Assembly: GCA_038740245.1 (NCBI GenBank)
Contig: JAVYLZ010000011.1
Coordinates: 1-18,667, forward strand
Direction of reading: 5' to 3'
DNA: 18,667 nt
Source of the DNA: Candidatus Micrarchaeia archaeon
GTDB taxonomy: Archaea; Micrarchaeota; Micrarchaeia; CAILAH01
Shown piece after piece: positions 1 through 13,656 of the stretch. Within the stretch, counting starts at the first letter, position 1, and every line of letters begins with the position of its first letter. Below the pieces are notes generated by a model. It had not been told where the DNA came from, ran no database searches, and saw nothing but the letters and a program-made list of their open reading frames with translations. The position numbers were made by a program, and so were the translations under genes.

Positions 1-3
1 CAC

Positions 4-3000
4 CTACTGCTTGACGCTACGTACGGAGTAGTAGCCATAAACTGAGAGCATCCGCGAGAAGAACACCGCCGGGTCAAGGTTGCCCGTATACAGCCGGGTA
101 GCCTCTGGACGGATGCCCGGCGGCACGTATGCAAGCGCGCCACCCCACGTTTCCGTATCAACAAGCGTCCTGCTCTTGCCGGTGACTACGGCCTGCGCAC
201 CAAGCATGTCCCGTATTAGGTTGCCTGCATCCTTGGCGGTGAGCTTTTTCTTGGCCTCGCCAGCAAACACGAGGTCAAATGAGTATGTGATTGATTTCCC
301 GTCCTCCATCTCCCTCTCGGCGCCGTAGCTTGCGACCACCGAGAACCCGCCACCTACCTTTTCCTTCTCTGCGGTGCCCGACACGTTGAGTGCAGTAAAG
401 TGCGTTAGCGCCCCGTCTTTCCAGCCCACCCAAAGCTCGCCTGTGCCGCGCCCACCCTCAATGGCCGAGCCGCCTGCAGAAAGTGAAACGAGAGTTTGCG
501 CAGAGTCACCTGCTGCGAACAGGACCCTGCCGACTAGGTTCTTGAAATCATCGTCATTGAGCCTGCCGCGGTCATACTTGCTTATGCCCAAATCAATCCT
601 GAATGTGCCGTCAAGCCCGAACCCCACGGTAACCGTTACTGGCATGCCCGTCACCGTGTCAACGAAATCTGCGCGCGCCGACCCCACAGCATACAAGCCG
701 GTATCGCCCATATACACCACGAGCTGGCCGCCGCCGCTTTCAACGCGGTCCTTGTAGATGTCAAGGCCGCCGCCCACGTAAAGGTAGCTGCCAATTGCGG
801 CAACCGCCTGGAAATCGTGCACCTTGCCCTCACGTTCAAGCAGCCGGTCAAGTGTTTCCCTATCCTTTGCGGCCTGTGCACTTATCTTGACAGGCACGCT
901 TGGCACAGTTACATCAATCGCCTTGCCGTCCTTAAAGTAAGTCATCTGGTGCGCCGGCAACCGTGTGTCTATGTCAAGCGCAGTTGTGCCGGCGGCCTCG
1001 CCCTTGCCTCTCCTGTAAAGCACATTATTATAGTTCTCGTACATCTGGTTGAGCTCCCTGAACACACGCGAGTTCCTGTATATGAGGCCGAACCTGACAA
1101 TGCCAACTCTGTTAAGCGTGTAGAGTGAAAGCGCCCAAGCCTCCTTCTCATCAAATCCAGCCGCCTTTAGCGTGTGGTGTAGCGTTACCAGCTTTGCAGT
1201 GACCTTGTATTCTTCGCTGAACTGCATCCCTAGGTTTGCCTCAATGAACCAGTTAATCACATCATATATCCTTTGGCCGCTCAGCAGCACCCGTGCTATT
1301 TTTTCGCCGTTGCTTGAGTTGTACCCGCCAAGCAGTCCGATTATGCCCTTCTCAATGTCCAGCTCCAGCGAGCCTCTGTTGTAGAATGACGCCTCAAGCC
1401 CTCCGAACAAGCCCGCCCATTTTGTCTCAGTCTTATGGCCTTCACGCTTGTCAGTCCAGCCCCCTATCGCATATGCAGTAAGCCTGCCGGTCGCGCCTTT
1501 GCCGGGGTACCAGAAATACTGCAGCCTCTCATAATGGCTGGTGCCGTCCCTGATGGGCCTTCCCGCCTCATCATAATCCATCCTCGTGTACCCGCTGTAC
1601 ATCGTCCCAATGGCGTGGGTGCCGAGGATGGAATGCCCGAGTGCAACTCCCCACTCATCCTTGAACAGGCGGTCAAACTTATTGCTGATATTCCTCCAGT
1701 ACTCGGCATCCCTTTCCCTGCTGGTGCCCCTGCCCCTGTAAATTTCAGCGGCAGCAGCGTGGCTCTCACCGTATTCCAGTATCCCCTTAAGGTCAAATGC
1801 GACCGCCTCGCCCACAAAATTCTTTGATGTTGCGGGTATGGTCTTGACCATCCCGAACAGGTTTGCCTCGCTTACGTCAAGCCTGGCGGCCGCATACTTC
1901 TTCAGGTACTCTTCAACGGGCTCCGAGAAGTGCGCCTCCTGCACCGTCCCGTCGGGTCTCGTGTAATAGAATTTTACCTCCCCACCGGTCTCCCCGCCGC
2001 CCCGCCTGAGGTAGCCGTTCTCATCAACATTCCTCACGCGCACAACAAGCAGTACCTCACTGCCCTTCTCAAGCACGTTCTTTGCAATGTCGCGCGCGGC
2101 AATCTCAGCGTCGCCGAACCCGGGCCGTGCAATGAACCGCACGCGCTCCTCGCCCCTGAGCAGCCCCTTGTCCTCCTCGCCGAGGCGCTCCTGAGCGGAT
2201 TTTGCCTCTCCCTCAACACCTGCGGTGGCGCCTATCTCCAGCTTTTTCTCGCGGAGTTCGCCATCCGTCCCTATCTCGTATATCCTTTGCACGCCTGTGC
2301 CGGGTGCAGCTACGGTGCCACCAACAAACAGAGATGCACCTTCCGCACCCCTTAAGAGCACTTCCCCCCCCGCTTCAGATCTGCCTATTTCGGCATCCAT
2401 TGCGCCGCCCGCGCTCACATATTCCCTGTAGAGCTCGCGCGTGAACTTAACATCGCTTTCAACAAACGCGCGGTTGATTGCGTTTGTGAGAGTGTCCACG
2501 TCCATCCCACTGCTCACCTGCGGCTCAATTCCCATCATATAATTACGCGGGCGGAGCTCGTTTTTGGCACGCTCGTAAAGCGACACAGGGGAATACTTGA
2601 GCGTGAACTTGCCCTTTGCATATTCCTCGCTGTCCCTGCTGAATGCCCTGTAATCCTGGCCGGCAAGTATGCCGAGCATCCCGACTGAATACTGCAGCCT
2701 CTGGAAATCACTCATCTCGGCAACAGTCCTGAGCAAGGGGGTATGTGCAACCGCAAGGTTTGTCTCCTCAAGCGGCACTGAGCGCAGGTCCTCAACAGCC
2801 AGCATCCTGAGCGTCTCAAACCTGTCAAACACGCTTTTTGTGGCCCTGAGGTTATCCTTGGCCCTGTCAAGCACATCGCCTACATATGTAATGCTCTCAA
2901 AAGTCGGTGTGGCAACACGGTCCTCAACGCTTTGGTTCACAGTGCGCAGCAGCCTTGCGGCATCTGCTGGCGTCTTGGCCTTGCCGATTATTTCCTTTTG

Positions 3001-4593
3001 CAGTGCGACGTATTTTGGAAGCAGTGACGGGTGCAGCTTGCTCATTAGGTAAAGGCCGTTTATGGTCTCCCCAAACAGCGAAGATGTGGTTATGCCGTAC
3101 ATATCCTTCTCAATGGAAGCACCCTTGGCGGCGGACATCTCAAGCGAGAATAGTATATACCTCTGCTCAAAGTAGCCGCTGTTGAAAAGGCGGTTAGCAC
3201 GATCTGTATACACATTCTTTACCGCTTGGTCAAGATTTGATTTGGCCATCGCCTCATTGAATGCCTGCCGGTACTGGCTGATGCCTGCGCTCGTATAATC
3301 GTAGATCTCCCTCGCTCTTTTTTCAGCCTCTTCCTTGCTCTCGCTTGTGAGCAGGAGATAGCCAATTGAATTCTTGTCAAACTCCTCATTGGTTATGCGG
3401 CGGTAAAGCTGTGCGTAGTCCTTTTCGTCATTTACGCCGAGCTTATCGGTAAAGTATATGTCAAGCCTTTTTATGAAGTCGGCAACCGCCTTGTAGGAGC
3501 GCAGCTCGCGCGCATCCCGGAGTATCTCCTGGTACTCAATTATGAACTTGTCAAGGGTGTCTCCGCGTTCCTTGTATTTCGTAAGGGCCTGCCCGACAGT
3601 CAGGTTCTCCGTGAGCGCAACAGAATTGAGCTCTCTCTTAACAAACGCGTCTATGTATCCGCCTAAATTTGTGTTCATCCTTGCGTACTCCTGGAGCTTG
3701 TCATAGCTACCGCCCATTGTACCCGTAAGCGGGAAGCCAAGGGACTGGTATGTGAACAGGACAGCATTCCTGTTCAGCGCCTTGAGCGTGTCGGCATAAT
3801 TGATGTCTGCCCCGTCTTTTATCACGTTTGCAAGTGTACCGGCAAACTCTGGGAAATTGCCCCCAGACAGGAGGTACAAACCATAAACATTGCCAAACTT
3901 CTTGACTTCTGATTCGTTAATCTTCTCATATTCCTTGGCAGTGGCCTTGTCGGGGGCCACTACCCTGATTTTTGCAATTTCTTGCAACACATCTAGCACT
4001 TCTTTGTTGCTGGCCCCGTTGCCGATAAGCCAGTCAAGAACCTGCAGTTTGACCGCAAGCTCGGTTGAAAGCACGGGCTGGACCATTCCAATCTCTTCTT
4101 TAGAGATGGTTGGCACTGAGGCCTCCTTCTGCCGCTTCTCCTTGTACTCATTCATCTTTTCTACCAGTGTTGCAAGCTCAGGTTCGCCCTCAAGCCCTAG
4201 AGCAGCAACAACTTTTTTGAGAGCACCATTTGTTTTAGGCCCCACAGCGCCGTCAACATCTATTTTTCTCCCCTCAATTAGGCCAGCATCTACTAGCTCA
4301 TTGTATTTCTCCTGAAATATGTACACTTCTTTCTTAACATCTTCAAGTCGTTTCTTTACGGAGTCCAATCCCCTCTCAACTTCGGCAAGAAGATCTTGAT
4401 TTGACGCAGATTTTTTTAGGATGTCTGGGTCTAAAAAGTAGTCCAATAATTCCCTGTCCTTCTTAAGCTCTTCTTTCATCTTTTCTCCTATAGGAAAATT
4501 AATGAGATTATTGAGCTTCCTCTTTGTGGATTCAATATCCGCCTTAAGCTCGCGTATAGTTTCCTGAGCCCTCTCTTTTACTTCCTGTGCCAT
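4..4593 (-). CDS. Giant hypothetical protein (~1529 aa): N-terminal coiled coil and PG-binding-like motif, helical middle, beta-strand-rich C-terminal half
   Basis: Uninterrupted ORF 4..4614 with TAG at 4-6. ATG 4593 (MAQEVKE) follows a purine-rich SD-like stretch. Contains the motif FQEKYNELVDAGLIEGRKIDVDGAVGPKTNGAL. No signal peptide or catalytic motif recognised. Confidence 0.85.
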   Translation of the reverse strand: MAQEVKERAQETIRELKADIESTKRKLNNLINFPIGEKMKEELKKDRELLDYFLDPDILKKSASNQDLLAEVERGLDSVKKRLEDVKKEVYIFQEKYNELVDAGLIEGRKIDVDGAVGPKTNGALKKVVAALGLEGEPELATLVEKMNEYKEKRQKEASVPTISKEEIGMVQPVLSTELAVKLQVLDWLIGNGASNKEVLDVLQEIAKIRVVAPDKATAKEYEKINESEVKKFGNVYGLYLLSGGNFPEFAGTLANVIKDGADINYADTLKALNRNAVLFTYQSLGFPLTGTMGGSYDKLQEYARMNTNLGGYIDAFVKRELNSVALTENLTVGQALTKYKERGDTLDKFIIEYQEILRDARELRSYKAVADFIKRLDIYFTDKLGVNDEKDYAQLYRRITNEEFDKNSIGYLLLTSESKEEAEKRAREIYDYTSAGISQYRQAFNEAMAKSNLDQAVKNVYTDRANRLFNSGYFEQRYILFSLEMSAAKGASIEKDMYGITTSSLFGETINGLYLMSKLHPSLLPKYVALQKEIIGKAKTPADAARLLRTVNQSVEDRVATPTFESITYVGDVLDRAKDNLRATKSVFDRFETLRMLAVEDLRSVPLEETNLAVAHTPLLRTVAEMSDFQRLQYSVGMLGILAGQDYRAFSRDSEEYAKGKFTLKYSPVSLYERAKNELRPRNYMMGIEPQVSSGMDVDTLTNAINRAFVESDVKFTRELYREYVSAGGAMDAEIGRSEAGGEVLLRGAEGASLFVGGTVAAPGTGVQRIYEIGTDGELREKKLEIGATAGVEGEAKSAQERLGEEDKGLLRGEERVRFIARPGFGDAEIAARDIAKNVLEKGSEVLLVVRVRNVDENGYLRRGGGETGGEVKFYYTRPDGTVQEAHFSEPVEEYLKKYAAARLDVSEANLFGMVKTIPATSKNFVGEAVAFDLKGILEYGESHAAAAEIYRGRGTSRERDAEYWRNISNKFDRLFKDEWGVALGHSILGTHAIGTMYSGYTRMDYDEAGRPIRDGTSHYERLQYFWYPGKGATGRLTAYAIGGWTDKREGHKTETKWAGLFGGLEASFYNRGSLELDIEKGIIGLLGGYNSSNGEKIARVLLSGQRIYDVINWFIEANLGMQFSEEYKVTAKLVTLHHTLKAAGFDEKEAWALSLYTLNRVGIVRFGLIYRNSRVFRELNQMYENYNNVLYRRGKGEAAGTTALDIDTRLPAHQMTYFKDGKAIDVTVPSVPVKISAQAAKDRETLDRLLEREGKVHDFQAVAAIGSYLYVGGGLDIYKDRVESGGGQLVVYMGDTGLYAVGSARADFVDTVTGMPVTVTVGFGLDGTFRIDLGISKYDRGRLNDDDFKNLVGRVLFAAGDSAQTLVSLSAGGSAIEGGRGTGELWVGWKDGALTHFTALNVSGTAEKEKVGGGFSVVASYGAEREMEDGKSITYSFDLVFAGEAKKKLTAKDAGNLIRDMLGAQAVVTGKSRTLVDTETWGGALAYVPPGIRPEATRLYTGNLDPAVFFSRMLSVYGYYSVRSVKQ

Positions 4594-4618
4594 CCCCCTT
4601 CTCCCCCTCTCCACTATT

Positions 4619-4698: not shown

Positions 4699-5940
4699 CT
4701 ATTTCTTTCCGAATTTTTTAAGATAGGCCTCCTCAGTTTCCCTTATAAGTTTTTCTAGAAGTTCCTTTTCTTTTTCGTTTGTTGCACTACCATAAAGTTC
4801 CTTCAGCCGTTTTATCTCTTCAGAAGCCAATGCATCTAGCCCACGTTCTATGAATGTTTTTGCCTTTTCTTTGTGGGTATTTGCAGCCTTAATTAAATTG
4901 ACCCTTGCATCTTCCTTTTCCTCTTTAGTTGTTTCAGCCACTTTCTTCTCTTCAGGCTGCTTTCCAAACTTGGCGTAGTACGGCTTCCTGAGTTCGGCAA
5001 GAAGCTTCTGCGCGGCCTTGAAGTTCTCAGGGTCATCACGCCTAAGCTCCAGCACAAATTCCTTGAATAGGCGTATCCGCATCTCAGCCGTCTTCTTGTC
5101 ACCGTCACTTATGGCTTTACGTATCTCCTTGACCATCTCAATGATTCTCTTCTCGTTAAGCTCCTCGCGCCCCGCCCGCCGTTCCTTCTCAATCTTCTCA
5201 AGTTGGGCGTCAAGCGTGGCTTCCCTGAGCCGGCCGCCCGTATAAATCTGCGCAAGCTTTGGGATAAACAATCCAGTAGAAGGCTTCTCTTCCGCTTTTG
5301 CCACTGCGGTCTCAATAGGCGTGTTGCCCTGCTTCTCATTCCATTCCCTGACCGCCTTGTCAAGCTCCGCATAACTGCCCTTGACAGCTATTCCTTTTTC
5401 CTTAAGGAACTTCCTCACTTTCTCTTCAGCAGCCATGGTCTTCGGGCCGCGCTTGCCGTCCTCAACGAGCAGATCGCCCTTAATATAGCCCTCGTCAACA
5501 AAGTGGTTGTAGGCAATCTGGAAACTCTTGACCTCCTCACTGTAAGTGTAGCCCCTTTTCTTTACCGGCGTGATCTTGGCCACTTCAGCCTTGGGCGCCT
5601 GCTCCTCCCGCTGCTGTGGCACCTGCTCCGCAACCATGGTGGGCGCCCTGCTGAGCTCGCGCGCCTCCTTCTTTAAGTCATCCACCATAAGCGCAACTGC
5701 TTTTTTTATCTCAGCCGGGGTATATATTCCCCGTTCACGCGCAAATGCGCTCATCATTTTAGTGACCTCTCGCTTAACATCAATTTCTGCGGCTTTCCGC
5801 TGGTCTTCACCCTCGGCGCCTGCGAGCTTTGAGACAAAATTGCTGAAGTTCCTACTTTCCTCCACTTGCTTCAAATTGAATGAGAGGTAAAGGTCCCTTG
5901 CACCTTTCTCAACATCCTTCTCCTTTTGCTTAAACGGCAT
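4699..5940 (-). CDS. Hypothetical helical protein (~413 aa) with a PG_binding_1-like motif and two C-terminal helical repeats
   Basis: ORF 4699..5949. GGGTG SD precedes ATG 5940 (MPFKQKE). Contains KKRGYTYSEEVKSFQIAYN...EDGKRGPKTMAA and is K/E-rich. Confidence 0.85.
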   Translation of the reverse strand: MPFKQKEKDVEKGARDLYLSFNLKQVEESRNFSNFVSKLAGAEGEDQRKAAEIDVKREVTKMMSAFARERGIYTPAEIKKAVALMVDDLKKEARELSRAPTMVAEQVPQQREEQAPKAEVAKITPVKKRGYTYSEEVKSFQIAYNHFVDEGYIKGDLLVEDGKRGPKTMAAEEKVRKFLKEKGIAVKGSYAELDKAVREWNEKQGNTPIETAVAKAEEKPSTGLFIPKLAQIYTGGRLREATLDAQLEKIEKERRAGREELNEKRIIEMVKEIRKAISDGDKKTAEMRIRLFKEFVLELRRDDPENFKAAQKLLAELRKPYYAKFGKQPEEKKVAETTKEEKEDARVNLIKAANTHKEKAKTFIERGLDALASEEIKRLKELYGSATNEKEKELLEKLIRETEEAYLKKFGKK

Positions 5941-5996
5941 ACATAACACCCGCTTCGTATGGTGAGCGCAAAAGCATCACCGATAATCCCTTCTCA

Positions 5997-6024: not shown

Positions 6025-6465
6025 TCAAATCTCGTCCTTGAGCAGCTCAATTGCGCCCATGTTGCCCAGCAGCCGCGCAATCTCCTCTGCTGTTATGCCG
6101 TCTTTCGTCGCAATCGTCTTGTCGGCACCGGCGCTTATGAGGAGGCGCGCCGCCTCGTTCCTGCCGTTTGCAACCGCATACATAAGCGCGGTTATCCCGT
6201 CATTATTCCTGAAGTCGGGGTCGCCGCCGTGCTGCAGCAGGTATTTAAGTATTCCGGTGTTGCCCGCACACGCCGCCGCCATTACAGGTGTATCGCCGTT
6301 CTGGTTCTGCAGGTTTGGCGAATACCCCTGCAGCACATAGAATTCAACGGTATTCTTGTCGTTGAGGTATGCCCCCCTCACAAACTTGGACACCTGGTCC
6401 TTGGCATCCAGGAACTCCGTCTTAAACGCAAACCGTGCCTTGTCAAACTGCGCCTCACTTGCCAT
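6025..6465 (-). CDS. Ankyrin repeat protein (~146 aa, about 3 repeats)
   Basis: Repeats GDTPVMAAACAGNTGILKYLLQHGGD, GITALMYAVANGRNEAARLLISAGAD and GITAEEIA. GGTGGTG SD before ATG 6465 (MASEAQ). Confidence 0.9.
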   Translation of the reverse strand: MASEAQFDKARFAFKTEFLDAKDQVSKFVRGAYLNDKNTVEFYVLQGYSPNLQNQNGDTPVMAAACAGNTGILKYLLQHGGDPDFRNNDGITALMYAVANGRNEAARLLISAGADKTIATKDGITAEEIARLLGNMGAIELLKDEI

Positions 6466-6494
6466 AACACCACCTAACGCATATTCGCGTAGGA

Positions 6495-6532
6495 ACTTAA
6501 AAAGGTTAAATATATGGCGGGCATATAAAGGG
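6495..6532. promoter_or_regulatory. Divergent promoter region between the ankyrin gene and pheS
   Basis: AT-rich boxes TTAAAAAGGTTAAATATA and CATATAAAG between divergent genes. Confidence 0.45.
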
Positions 6533-6589
6533 ATATCGGTGCGCAGCAAGCAGCCCTGATTGGCAAGTAGGCGCTCCCGCTATGTTATG

Positions 6590-10322: not shown

Positions 10323-11338
10323 TTGGAAGTAAATTTATACAAGCGCACCGCATATCCTCTACTGTTTGCACTTATACTATGCGTTGGTTGCACCCATTAC
10401 ATGTACGATGTACATAATTATGTAATGCAAAATTATGTGGACTATTACGTGGAGCTTAGGCCATCAGAAGATGAAATTCTCAAAAATGGCACACAAATTG
10501 AAAGCGTAGTGGAGCTTTTTGACCAGGAAGAATGCGGCTTTGTAAAGTGGGACTGCCATAATGCGCAATCCACGGTGTCTTATTCCATTTGGGGCTGGTT
10601 TTATACTCTAAAAACGACTCTACCTCGAGTTTTGAATTCTATTTGGTAGATGACAAAAGTTTTTGCAAGGAATTGGACGAAGATTCCAAATATCTCTTAA
10701 AAGGCGTTGTTGCAGGAGAATCTTCTTATTTTGGGGAATTACCGGTTTTCAGGTCTAAATATCGCATTTTTGCCTATAATATTAGCCAAGCTAGTGTAAC
10801 TCGGCTTGGGAAGGAGCAAGCCGTTGACTTCTACTATACGGATATAGAATGGGATAATTCCTCAAGGGTTATAGAGCTTGCATGCGGCACCAATATATCA
10901 AGTTTGAAGATTGCCATATCAGGGGACAATGGCTCGGCATATTACCGTCAGAGTTTCCCATTAAAATTGACAAGCAATTCAAACGTTGAGTATTTAATTG
11001 GCAAAGGTAGAGATGTGATACGGTGCGAAATTCCGCCTTCATACGCCATCATAGTGAAAGTTGCACAGCAAAAAGTCGGCTCTGAAATGAAAGTGCGCCT
11101 GTTTGGAAAGGAATGCAAATATTTAGTTGGTGAAGAGGACGCTATCTATTATTCGTGCGAGGTCCCTGACGCGCTGCCAGCATTATCGGAAATAAAGGAT
11201 GAGGACGTGAAGATTGAATTGCATAAGGACGACGAAGAGGTGTGCATCCCAATTGACATATTTGAAAAGGTCAATGCAATTTACGATATTCTGAGGACAA
11301 TGGATACCGAGGATAAATTTAGTTTCCTTTTTGAATGA
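10323..11338 (+). pseudogene. AT-rich secreted/lipoprotein-like gene split by a single frameshift (ORFs 10323-10649 and 10589-11338)
   Basis: ORF1 begins with a hydrophobic signal ending LILCVGC. The ORFs overlap by 61 nt, and one extra base (e.g. A5 at 10610-10614 to A6) fuses them into 338 aa. Six N-x-S/T sequons are present. Confidence 0.6.
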
Positions 11339-13197: not shown

Positions 13198-13239
13198 TTA
13201 ATATATTTTGCCCCCATATGATAGCACAGAGGTGTTATG

Positions 13240-13656
13240 ATGGTAGAGTTCCGTGGCATAAAGCTGAACTACGTTGAGGCCAAGAGGGAGAAGGACACTG
13301 CAGTCAGCGGCCTGAACATAAACATAAACATTGACGACATAAAGGCGATCAATGATGATTTCGCGGTTGATTTCACGTATACTGTGAATTATGCCGAAAA
13401 TGTAGGCTACCTTAAGATGGGCGGCACGGTATACGCAAAGGACACCGTTGCCGGCGCAAAGAAGATTGAGGAAAGCTGGAGGATGGAGAAAAAGATTGAC
13501 CCAGCAATTGCACAGCCATTGCTTAACCTGATAAACTTCAGCTCAGGTGTGAACGGGGTGTTTGTTGCGCGTGCAATCAATCTGGCGCCCCCGCTTGTGC
13601 CCCCCAGGATTGAGGTATCAGTAAAAGGCGGTGCAGCCGCGACAAAGGGCCGCTAA
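13240..13656 (+). CDS. Conserved archaeal hypothetical protein (predicted SecB-like beta-sheet plus helix topology)
   Basis: GAGGTG SD at 13229-13234; start is ATG 13240 or 13237. Pattern F.YTVNY...VG.L...G.V followed by a helix and C-terminal NLAPPLVPP, recalled from an archaeal family. Confidence 0.75.
   Translation: MVEFRGIKLNYVEAKREKDTAVSGLNININIDDIKAINDDFAVDFTYTVNYAENVGYLKMGGTVYAKDTVAGAKKIEESWRMEKKIDPAIAQPLLNLINFSSGVNGVFVARAINLAPPLVPPRIEVSVKGGAAATKGR

Follow-up and report, generated by a model that had tools for sequence, protein, structure and literature searches.

A coupled gene pair of patchy distribution in Micrarchaeota, the larger product of which probably ends in an outer-membrane-type beta-barrel

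Results

The locus and its two-gene module

The window analysed here, 18,667 nt long, is the entire contig C11 of G000, a Micrarchaeota genome (688 kb, 41 contigs, 81% complete) from a tiny archaeon of symbiotic type, and carries, together with archaeal housekeeping genes (PheRS, MCM, eIF2-gamma, S6e), a giant gene on the minus strand, the frame of which is open over 4-4614 and closes with a TAG stop at 4-6 (Table 1). Although the window ends where the contig does, the C-terminus is the true end of the protein, since a relative ends at the same place. Residue numbers below count the last 803 codons (the 803-aa part), to which 726 is added for positions in the full 1529-aa protein. This part holds 13.4% Gly as compared to 6.0% in the part upstream of it. 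In line with an earlier note, which saw in the C-terminal 800 residues an outer-membrane-type barrel on a helical stalk, we find no transmembrane helix (the highest 19-residue hydropathy in the giant protein is 1.21), a helical N-terminal half (Table 1) and all ten of the Gly/aromatic segments quoted there. LSVYGYYSV, which it had called terminal, is followed by a tail: seven residues lie beyond the last aromatic, and the chain ends in Gln.

Table 1. Features of the giant gene and its upstream neighbours in the window
Feature	Position	Strand	Remarks
Stop codon and the same bases as in G047	1..6	-	Partner lies beyond the contig end
Whole giant gene	4..4593	-	Likely ATG at 4593, which is also the database start; 1529 aa
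Predicted outer-membrane-type beta-meander/barrel domain, 13-15 strands	16..822	-	Residues 532-800 (1258-1526 of the full protein); based on AlphaFold2 secondary structure, fold searches, face asymmetry, belt finder and connector alternation
Long variable insert (helices and hairpin)	823..1071	-	~40-aa deletion in relatives; DSSP
Single amphipathic strand	1075..1098	-	Residues 440-447; face means 2.79 / -0.7; belt at 438
Conserved mixed alpha/beta middle, Gly/aromatic-rich	1105..2415	-	No charge-free face; pLDDT mostly <50
Conserved helical stalk region, ~570 aa	2434..4146	-	Alpha periodicity p 0.0002; 74% identical to G047
Peptidoglycan-binding-like motif in allele-specific N-terminus	4168..4272	-	Sub-cut-off in Pfam
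Lys/Glu-rich 416-aa upstream protein	4699..5949	-	Positional counterparts in relatives carry PG_binding-type domains
Ankyrin-repeat protein at locus head	6025..6549	-	Also in G047 and, by eye, G005

Among 401 genomes of the phylum the family was found in six (G000, G011, G142, G220, G260, G351), which together with G047 makes seven genomes in all, from two families (4 of 99 in family f15). Behind these counts stand a class sample (5 of 301 genomes, of which one was set aside as a chance match) and phylum samples that gave 7 of 401 twice, with one different chance match dropped from each. Rejected as members were G238 (E 1e-3, internal stops), G081 (E 1e-3, within a gene that by eye is heme-synthesis-like) and G104 (E 0.0015, a helical match in an unrelated protein). 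The distribution is rare and patchy and the locus fast-evolving, with 21-43% identity beyond the closest pairs; within the C-terminal domain, identity runs from 80% down to 20%.

Our searches returned no family or relative beyond Micrarchaeota. Pfam gave no match above cut-off for the giant protein, a PDB sequence search with the seven-sequence profile reached E 0.35 at best, the best ESM Atlas scores (0.82 and 0.86) lay under 0.9, and word-indexed searches found the giant protein itself, the G047 copy and no others. From 1.84 billion representatives came three matches, namely two members of the family and a repeat adhesin of 2513 aa, in our judgement a chance match, and a metagenome scan yielded one locus with its match at the same position as that of G142. 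Homology to the giant family on contig C36, to the second giant of G260, to a 930-aa protein on contig C8 or to the partner described below is likewise without support (hhalign probability <=3.7%). In G047 a 1-nt insertion at L009:10350-10380, either real or an assembly error, splits the orthologue into frames of 769 and 805 aa.

The giant protein belongs to a coupled two-gene module, which the earlier note had overlooked. A partner gene (~950-1160 aa where complete) adjoins the giant gene within ~15 nt in six of six relatives, downstream in five and upstream in G260, and in G047 its ATG lies 9 nt beyond the giant-gene stop. The G000 contig ends 3 nt past the stop, these bases being identical to those of G047; the C-half of the partner (71% identical) opens contig C36 of G000 (G000:C36:2-1288), so that contigs C11 and C36 are probably adjacent. 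When the 401-genome sample was searched with a partner profile, the same six genomes were recovered plus one weak match, G332, which we left out of the count (E 3e-4, C-terminal part only). Outside residues 235-360 the partner is helical; within them, seven amphipathic beta segments (p 0.002) precede a hydrophobic stretch.

The surroundings of the pair vary. At the G005 locus an ankyrin gene, a 311-aa gene and a peptidoglycan-binding protein accompany a different giant of 1403 aa that does not match the family; G047 carries the pair without the G005-type giant at the locus, and G000 carries both the pair and, as its second giant, one of the G005 type. In this variable cassette giant proteins stand next to peptidoglycan-binding-like domains; the locus, being patchy and swappable, favours a role in interaction over one as a core envelope part. 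The second giant of G000 (L034:1349-5623 (+), G000:C36; 1425 aa) has a signal-like leader, a helical N-half and a beta-rich C-terminal 430 aa, its end showing 16 segments (p 0.006), and has relatives in G005, G011 and G017 (4 of 301 genomes). The 930-aa frame on C8 (L036:1244-4033 (-) = G000:C8:12243-15032), helical in its N-part and ending in Trp, shows 13 amphipathic segments in its last 300 aa (p 0.013), which makes it a third barrel candidate; by eye, a gene nearby resembles a VirB4/HerA-type ATPase. On G260:C23 (L035:11374-16348 (+)) a 345-aa frame with a signal-like leader overlaps another frame that encodes a beta-rich giant of 1362 aa, and the two are possibly one frameshifted gene.

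Strand signal, structure models and fold matches

Where the earlier note had more than 20 alternating strands over 800 residues, the signal we can sustain is that of ~13-16 strands in the last 270-360. Over the whole 800 aa, the single sequence gives 16 alternating segments versus 11.7 +- 2.5 in shuffles (p 0.064), and beta periodicity in the alignment stands at p 0.087; global beta periodicity is marginal (p 0.055). A model-free belt finder, run on six aligned sequences (G047 was omitted as redundant), located 14 amphipathic segments in residues 430-803 versus 6.9 under the null (p 0.002), 13 belts being found in 525-803; residues 185-429 gave three segments versus 3.7 (p 0.78) and residues 1-184 two (p 0.31). 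A barrel of SlpA size, with 28-30 strands starting at residue 185, was dismissed, its middle strands being devoid of face asymmetry. The belt density of the C-terminal domain (4.3 per 100 aa) equals that of soluble-looking beta-rich proteins from the same genome (4.0-4.1; Ig-like by eye), so alternation marks strands, not membrane. This is one reason to consider that the domain may be soluble and beta-rich, be it a sheet on helices or a sandwich, and that AlphaFold2 (AF2) bends it into porin shape on the strength of a shallow alignment.

Two AF2 runs, each on the seven-sequence alignment, predict a continuous antiparallel meander in the last ~270 residues, both at low confidence. Model 1, of the 803-aa part, shows a 13-strand meander (pLDDT 38, pTM 0.25), and model 2, the domain model of residues 490-803, ten contiguous antiparallel strands (pLDDT 43, pTM 0.48; eight residues at pLDDT 70-90 and 98 at 50-70) with the first five strands unfolded; the two models disagree over the last strand, which one of them builds as a helix. 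The structure prediction that the earlier note had suggested as a check yields the porin-like meander, though a closed barrel in neither model. Low pLDDT and an input of only seven sequences suit a soluble domain; that strand positions agree between both models and are recovered by the model-free finder argues against it.

With the domain model, all 50 matches listed by VIA are membrane barrels (Z 9.1-11.5, rmsd 3.3-6.5 A, 139-230 residues aligned), where the best chance match typically reaches Z 7-8. They include CymA (Z 11.5, rmsd 4.7, 189 aligned), OmpG (Z 11.3, rmsd 5.1, 185 aligned) and BpsOmp38 (Z 10.9, rmsd 3.8, 194 aligned), and since none is outstanding among those listed, they name a fold class and no family. 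Propellers, sandwiches and solenoids, the folds that the earlier note had set against its own reading, do not occur among these 50, and neither do toxin or AsmA/TamB chains. Among the matches listed by Foldseek for the same model, each is a porin, a porin-derived design, FapF, BcsC or TOC, with TM-scores of 0.42 at most. For the 803-aa model, 45 of the 50 matches listed by VIA are membrane barrels (best Z 9.2, rmsd 3.5, 106 aligned, residues 643-802); the five non-membrane ones include levivirus coat proteins and a soluble pigment protein, which again fits a soluble domain. Foldseek returned mostly porins for this model at TM-scores <=0.14 and rmsd 16-35 A, and scores this low mean that the porin likeness is local only.

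Faces and connectors

The faces of the predicted strands are unequal. In the 13 model strands of residues 532-800, charged residues occupy 4 of 295 cells on one face versus 42 of 289 on the other (six sequences, p 0.001 relative to shuffling within strands; as the sequences are related, the cells are less independent than their number suggests). The nine strands modelled in 190-447 lack such asymmetry as a set (p 0.55), 440-447 being the exception. Gly makes up 43 of 213 residues (20%) on the polar face versus 9 of 279 (3%) in three beta-rich proteins taken from the same genome as controls, a contrast whose p is inflated by kinship and which in the window sequence alone stands at 7 of 39. It is this Gly on the polar face that separates the domain from the soluble-looking controls, and a Gly-rich lumen is a mark of membrane barrels. 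Aromatics are spread 56 versus 14 over the two faces in model 2 and 62 versus 43 in model 1; their enrichment relative to the same-genome beta-rich controls is not significant (p 0.11).

Connector lengths alternate between short and long (2,2,2,6,4,10,4,13,2,8,4,17,3,27), an order that 22 of 3432 permutations equal or exceed (p 0.006), with period-2 sidedness across 12 consecutive connectors and indels mostly in the long ones. Combining the two models, we arrive at a putative 16 strands: strand 440-447, a candidate first strand that would raise the count to this number, then the insert, which, should the preceding strand be number 1, would serve as the first of the long loops, and 15 later strands, the last of which may follow a long loop as in porins. 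What the domain offers of a barrel, then, is an antiparallel meander of at least eight strands (at low confidence), a charge-free versus a Gly-rich face and short turns versus long loops. The outer-membrane-type fold that had been assigned to the entire region is supported for its last third (low-confidence models, face asymmetry, turn/loop sidedness) and was drawn too widely for residues 1-430, where there is no belt signal. For this C-terminal domain we regard membership in the fold class as probable. A soluble domain, to our minds, is unlikely in view of its Gly-rich polar face, which the controls do not share, and of the sidedness of its connectors.

A one-sided hydrophobic meander would also suit a lipid-transfer groove, that is, a curved sheet like that of AsmA, TamB or VPS13 with its hydrophobic face turned inward and carrying lipids from the host membrane. 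DPANN archaea take up lipids from their hosts, neither model shows barrel closure and ranks 5-6 in the list for the 803-aa model are taken by microsomal triglyceride transfer protein (E 1e-3, at a probability of just 0.11). AsmA/TamB/VPS13 grooves are built, however, from a helix-punctuated five-strand repeat which we do not see in the AF2 strand lists, and the domain model matches barrels throughout the top 50 listed, which makes a groove rather improbable.

Leader, insertion machinery and wall binding

The earlier note had the protein without a signal peptide. That is correct for this allele (best 12-residue hydropathy -0.04) but not for the family, as two of the four members with a complete N-terminus have one: by hydropathy and eye, signal-peptide-like leaders are present in G047, G351 and the second giant, and absent from G000 and G260. 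For the first ~150 residues of the G000 protein there is no counterpart at any relative's locus at E 1, and the stretch around their peptidoglycan-binding-like motif shares 43% identity with the upstream gene over 67 aa; a domain swap may have replaced the leader. A start of the form Met-Ala...Gln followed by a Lys/Glu-rich stretch occurs in 2 of 591 frames of at least 200 aa (window 4564-4593 and an amidase on G000:C23); it resembles the N-termini of the partners and, as a pattern devised post hoc, does no more than hint at a common export leader.

A search for Omp85/BamA (PF01103) found it in none of five genomes (81-93% complete; four carriers and G005), a search whose controls matched in 7 of 14 cases and which a very divergent insertase may escape. 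A terminal aromatic residue is absent, and C-terminal tails of the same kind end the proteins of G047, G011, G142 and G351. The marks of a BAM-inserted protein are accordingly missing here, with no Sec signal peptide (this allele, G260), no terminal aromatic and no Omp85/BamA.

Hints of peptidoglycan or wall binding are real but uneven, as judged from profile matches. PG_binding_3 matches the giant protein at E 0.027 as a whole and at E 8e-4 as a fragment (19.9 bits versus a cut-off of 24.6), and with a profile built from the relatives the giant ORF comes 2nd of 2008 in the genome (E 0.062). PG_binding_1 lies above cut-off in the positional neighbour in G005 (34.9 versus 23 bits) and below it in G351, G260 and the G000 giant protein; it is found in the control archaeon Methanosarcina as well. 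On G000:C32, a frame at L055:5580-7355 (+) that reaches the contig end and has a long remainder carries PG_binding_1 at 34.7 bits, above cut-off. An Amidase_2 peptidoglycan amidase is encoded in G000 and G047, and the amidase family was not found in four of the five other carriers searched. The G000 amidase (L056:2990-4258 (-) = G000:C23:8989-10257; Amidase_2 E 3e-34) has PG_binding_3 and PG_binding_1 above cut-off and, by eye, no signal peptide, and its contig bears archaeal-type genes, again labelled by eye.

Wall-binding domains and an amidase could belong to a two-component, pore-forming weapon that is secreted against nearby microbes, which may be bacteria. Such a weapon would go well with the strict two-gene coupling, the patchy and fast-evolving locus, the beta segment and subsequent hydrophobic stretch of the partner, and a modular amidase with peptidoglycan-binding domains on a contig of archaeal-type genes. 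Known beta-pore toxins, however, contribute one or two hairpins per protomer as against the 13-15 contiguous strands here, no toxin fold is among the matches listed (Foldseek with the domain model, VIA with both models), and in most other carriers searched the amidase was not found. We therefore hold a weapon to be improbable, notwithstanding a published precedent of archaeal peptidoglycan hydrolases that kill bacteria (PMC12352652, available text).

Comparison with known systems

Channels of 12-18 strands (CymA 4d5b, OmpG 2f1c, FadL 3dwo, Vibrio OmpT 5oyk, Omp38 8wv0, Omp32 1e54) share with the domain a predicted up-and-down meander (Z 10.9-11.5), a charge-free face opposite a Gly-rich one and short turns versus long loops. 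Unlike them, the giant protein carries over 1,100 residues N-terminal to the barrel, lacks a terminal aromatic and comes from an archaeal host without detectable BamA; no sequence similarity was found, and identity in structural alignments is 5-11%.

SlpA of Deinococcus and, reportedly, OmpM of diderm Firmicutes tether the outer membrane to the wall, and the giant protein is like SlpA/OmpM in its order of wall-binding-like domain, long helical stalk and C-terminal barrel. It differs from these in having no SLH match (Pfam, E 0.1) and a sub-cut-off PG_binding-like motif instead, in its putative ~16 versus 30 strands, in being accessory and in being paired with a second gene; SlpA chains rank 4, 12 and 17 for the 803-aa model at TM-scores <0.1. 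The SlpA order (wall-binding, helical stalk, barrel), described for Deinococcus in the available part of PMC9388160, could nevertheless support the view that the protein is a true porin or tether of a second, outer membrane in this uncultivated lineage, as may the occurrence of at least three barrel-like proteins in the G000 genome and a one-time postulate of two membranes in Micrarchaeota (bioRxiv 2021.04.28.441871, as far as its available text goes). Against it speak the S-layer of cultivated Micrarchaeota (same preprint and PMC11329633, each from the accessible portion), the failure to find BamA and a presence in 6 of 401 genomes, a number too low for a core part of the envelope unless further copies are hidden by divergence. 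We deem an outer-membrane protein of this kind quite unlikely.

PopA, the porin-like protein of Bdellovibrio, belongs to a superfamily with a possible DPANN relative in Altiarchaeales (PMC12228718, available sections). PopA 9gf0 is match 49 in the VIA list for the 803-aa model (Z 6.3, rmsd 11.5, 175 aligned) and shows no specific similarity above that of other porins; the giant protein is much larger. In the literature we found, as far as its available text goes, this relative is the only such candidate and no membrane beta-barrel is described for Micrarchaeota; Supplementary Table 3 of that paper and Table S2 of PMC12352652 may bear on the point. Ihomp1, the pore protein in the outermost membrane of Ignicoccus hospitalis, differs in being alpha-helical rather than a beta-barrel (PMC3422733, accessible part).

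Discussion

Our data describe a real and hitherto undescribed two-gene module, the larger protein of which probably ends in an outer-membrane-type barrel smaller than first claimed. We favour, by a modest degree of confidence, insertion of this barrel domain into a membrane. The last ~270-360 residues would then form a barrel of bacterial outer-membrane type, likely of ~16 strands, that anchors a 1,100-residue stalk of helical and alpha/beta make-up in a lipid bilayer, with the stalk and the short turns on the side from which the barrel inserts. In members with a signal peptide that side would be the outside of the archaeon's own membrane, and from there the stalk may reach across to another bilayer, that of a host being the likeliest. 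Peptidoglycan-binding-like domains of the locus might grip wall glycan. Working together with the product of the adjoining partner gene, the giant protein, anchored by its barrel, may act as a channel or tether where cells make contact, a role that we put forward tentatively. On this view the pair would be a candidate apparatus with which a cell plugs into a membrane at such contacts.

Membrane beta-barrels are a hallmark of diderm bacteria and their organelles. If real, the barrel bears on whether some Micrarchaeota have a second membrane as well as on what builds the junction between DPANN archaea and their hosts; with its 270-360 residues the domain is also small enough for direct refolding and bears on the insertion of barrels without BamA. 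A different twist would be that the carriers attach to bacteria instead of archaea, with BamA-free barrel-tipped giants that insert channels, peptidoglycan-binding domains that hold the wall and an amidase that opens it. Though we consider this rather unlikely, it would, if true, amount to an archaeal parasite of bacteria with outer-membrane-type barrels as its feeding or delivery conduit. Tomography has revealed, according to the available text of PMC11329633, a 21-nm barrel-shaped complex in a Micrarchaeota envelope; it is far larger than one porin and has no link to the giant gene.

Two further stretches of the window deserve mention. A 139-aa protein at 13237-13656 (+), for which a similar gene lies inside the G260 locus (L027:2411-2809), looked SecB-like by eye, a reading we dropped as PDB and Pfam sequence searches gave no support. 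Finally, at 10323-11338 (+), overlapping frames of 108 and 249 aa without a Pfam match fall in an AT-rich stretch (44% GC) and are perhaps a split lipoprotein gene, with a start that by eye is lipobox-like.
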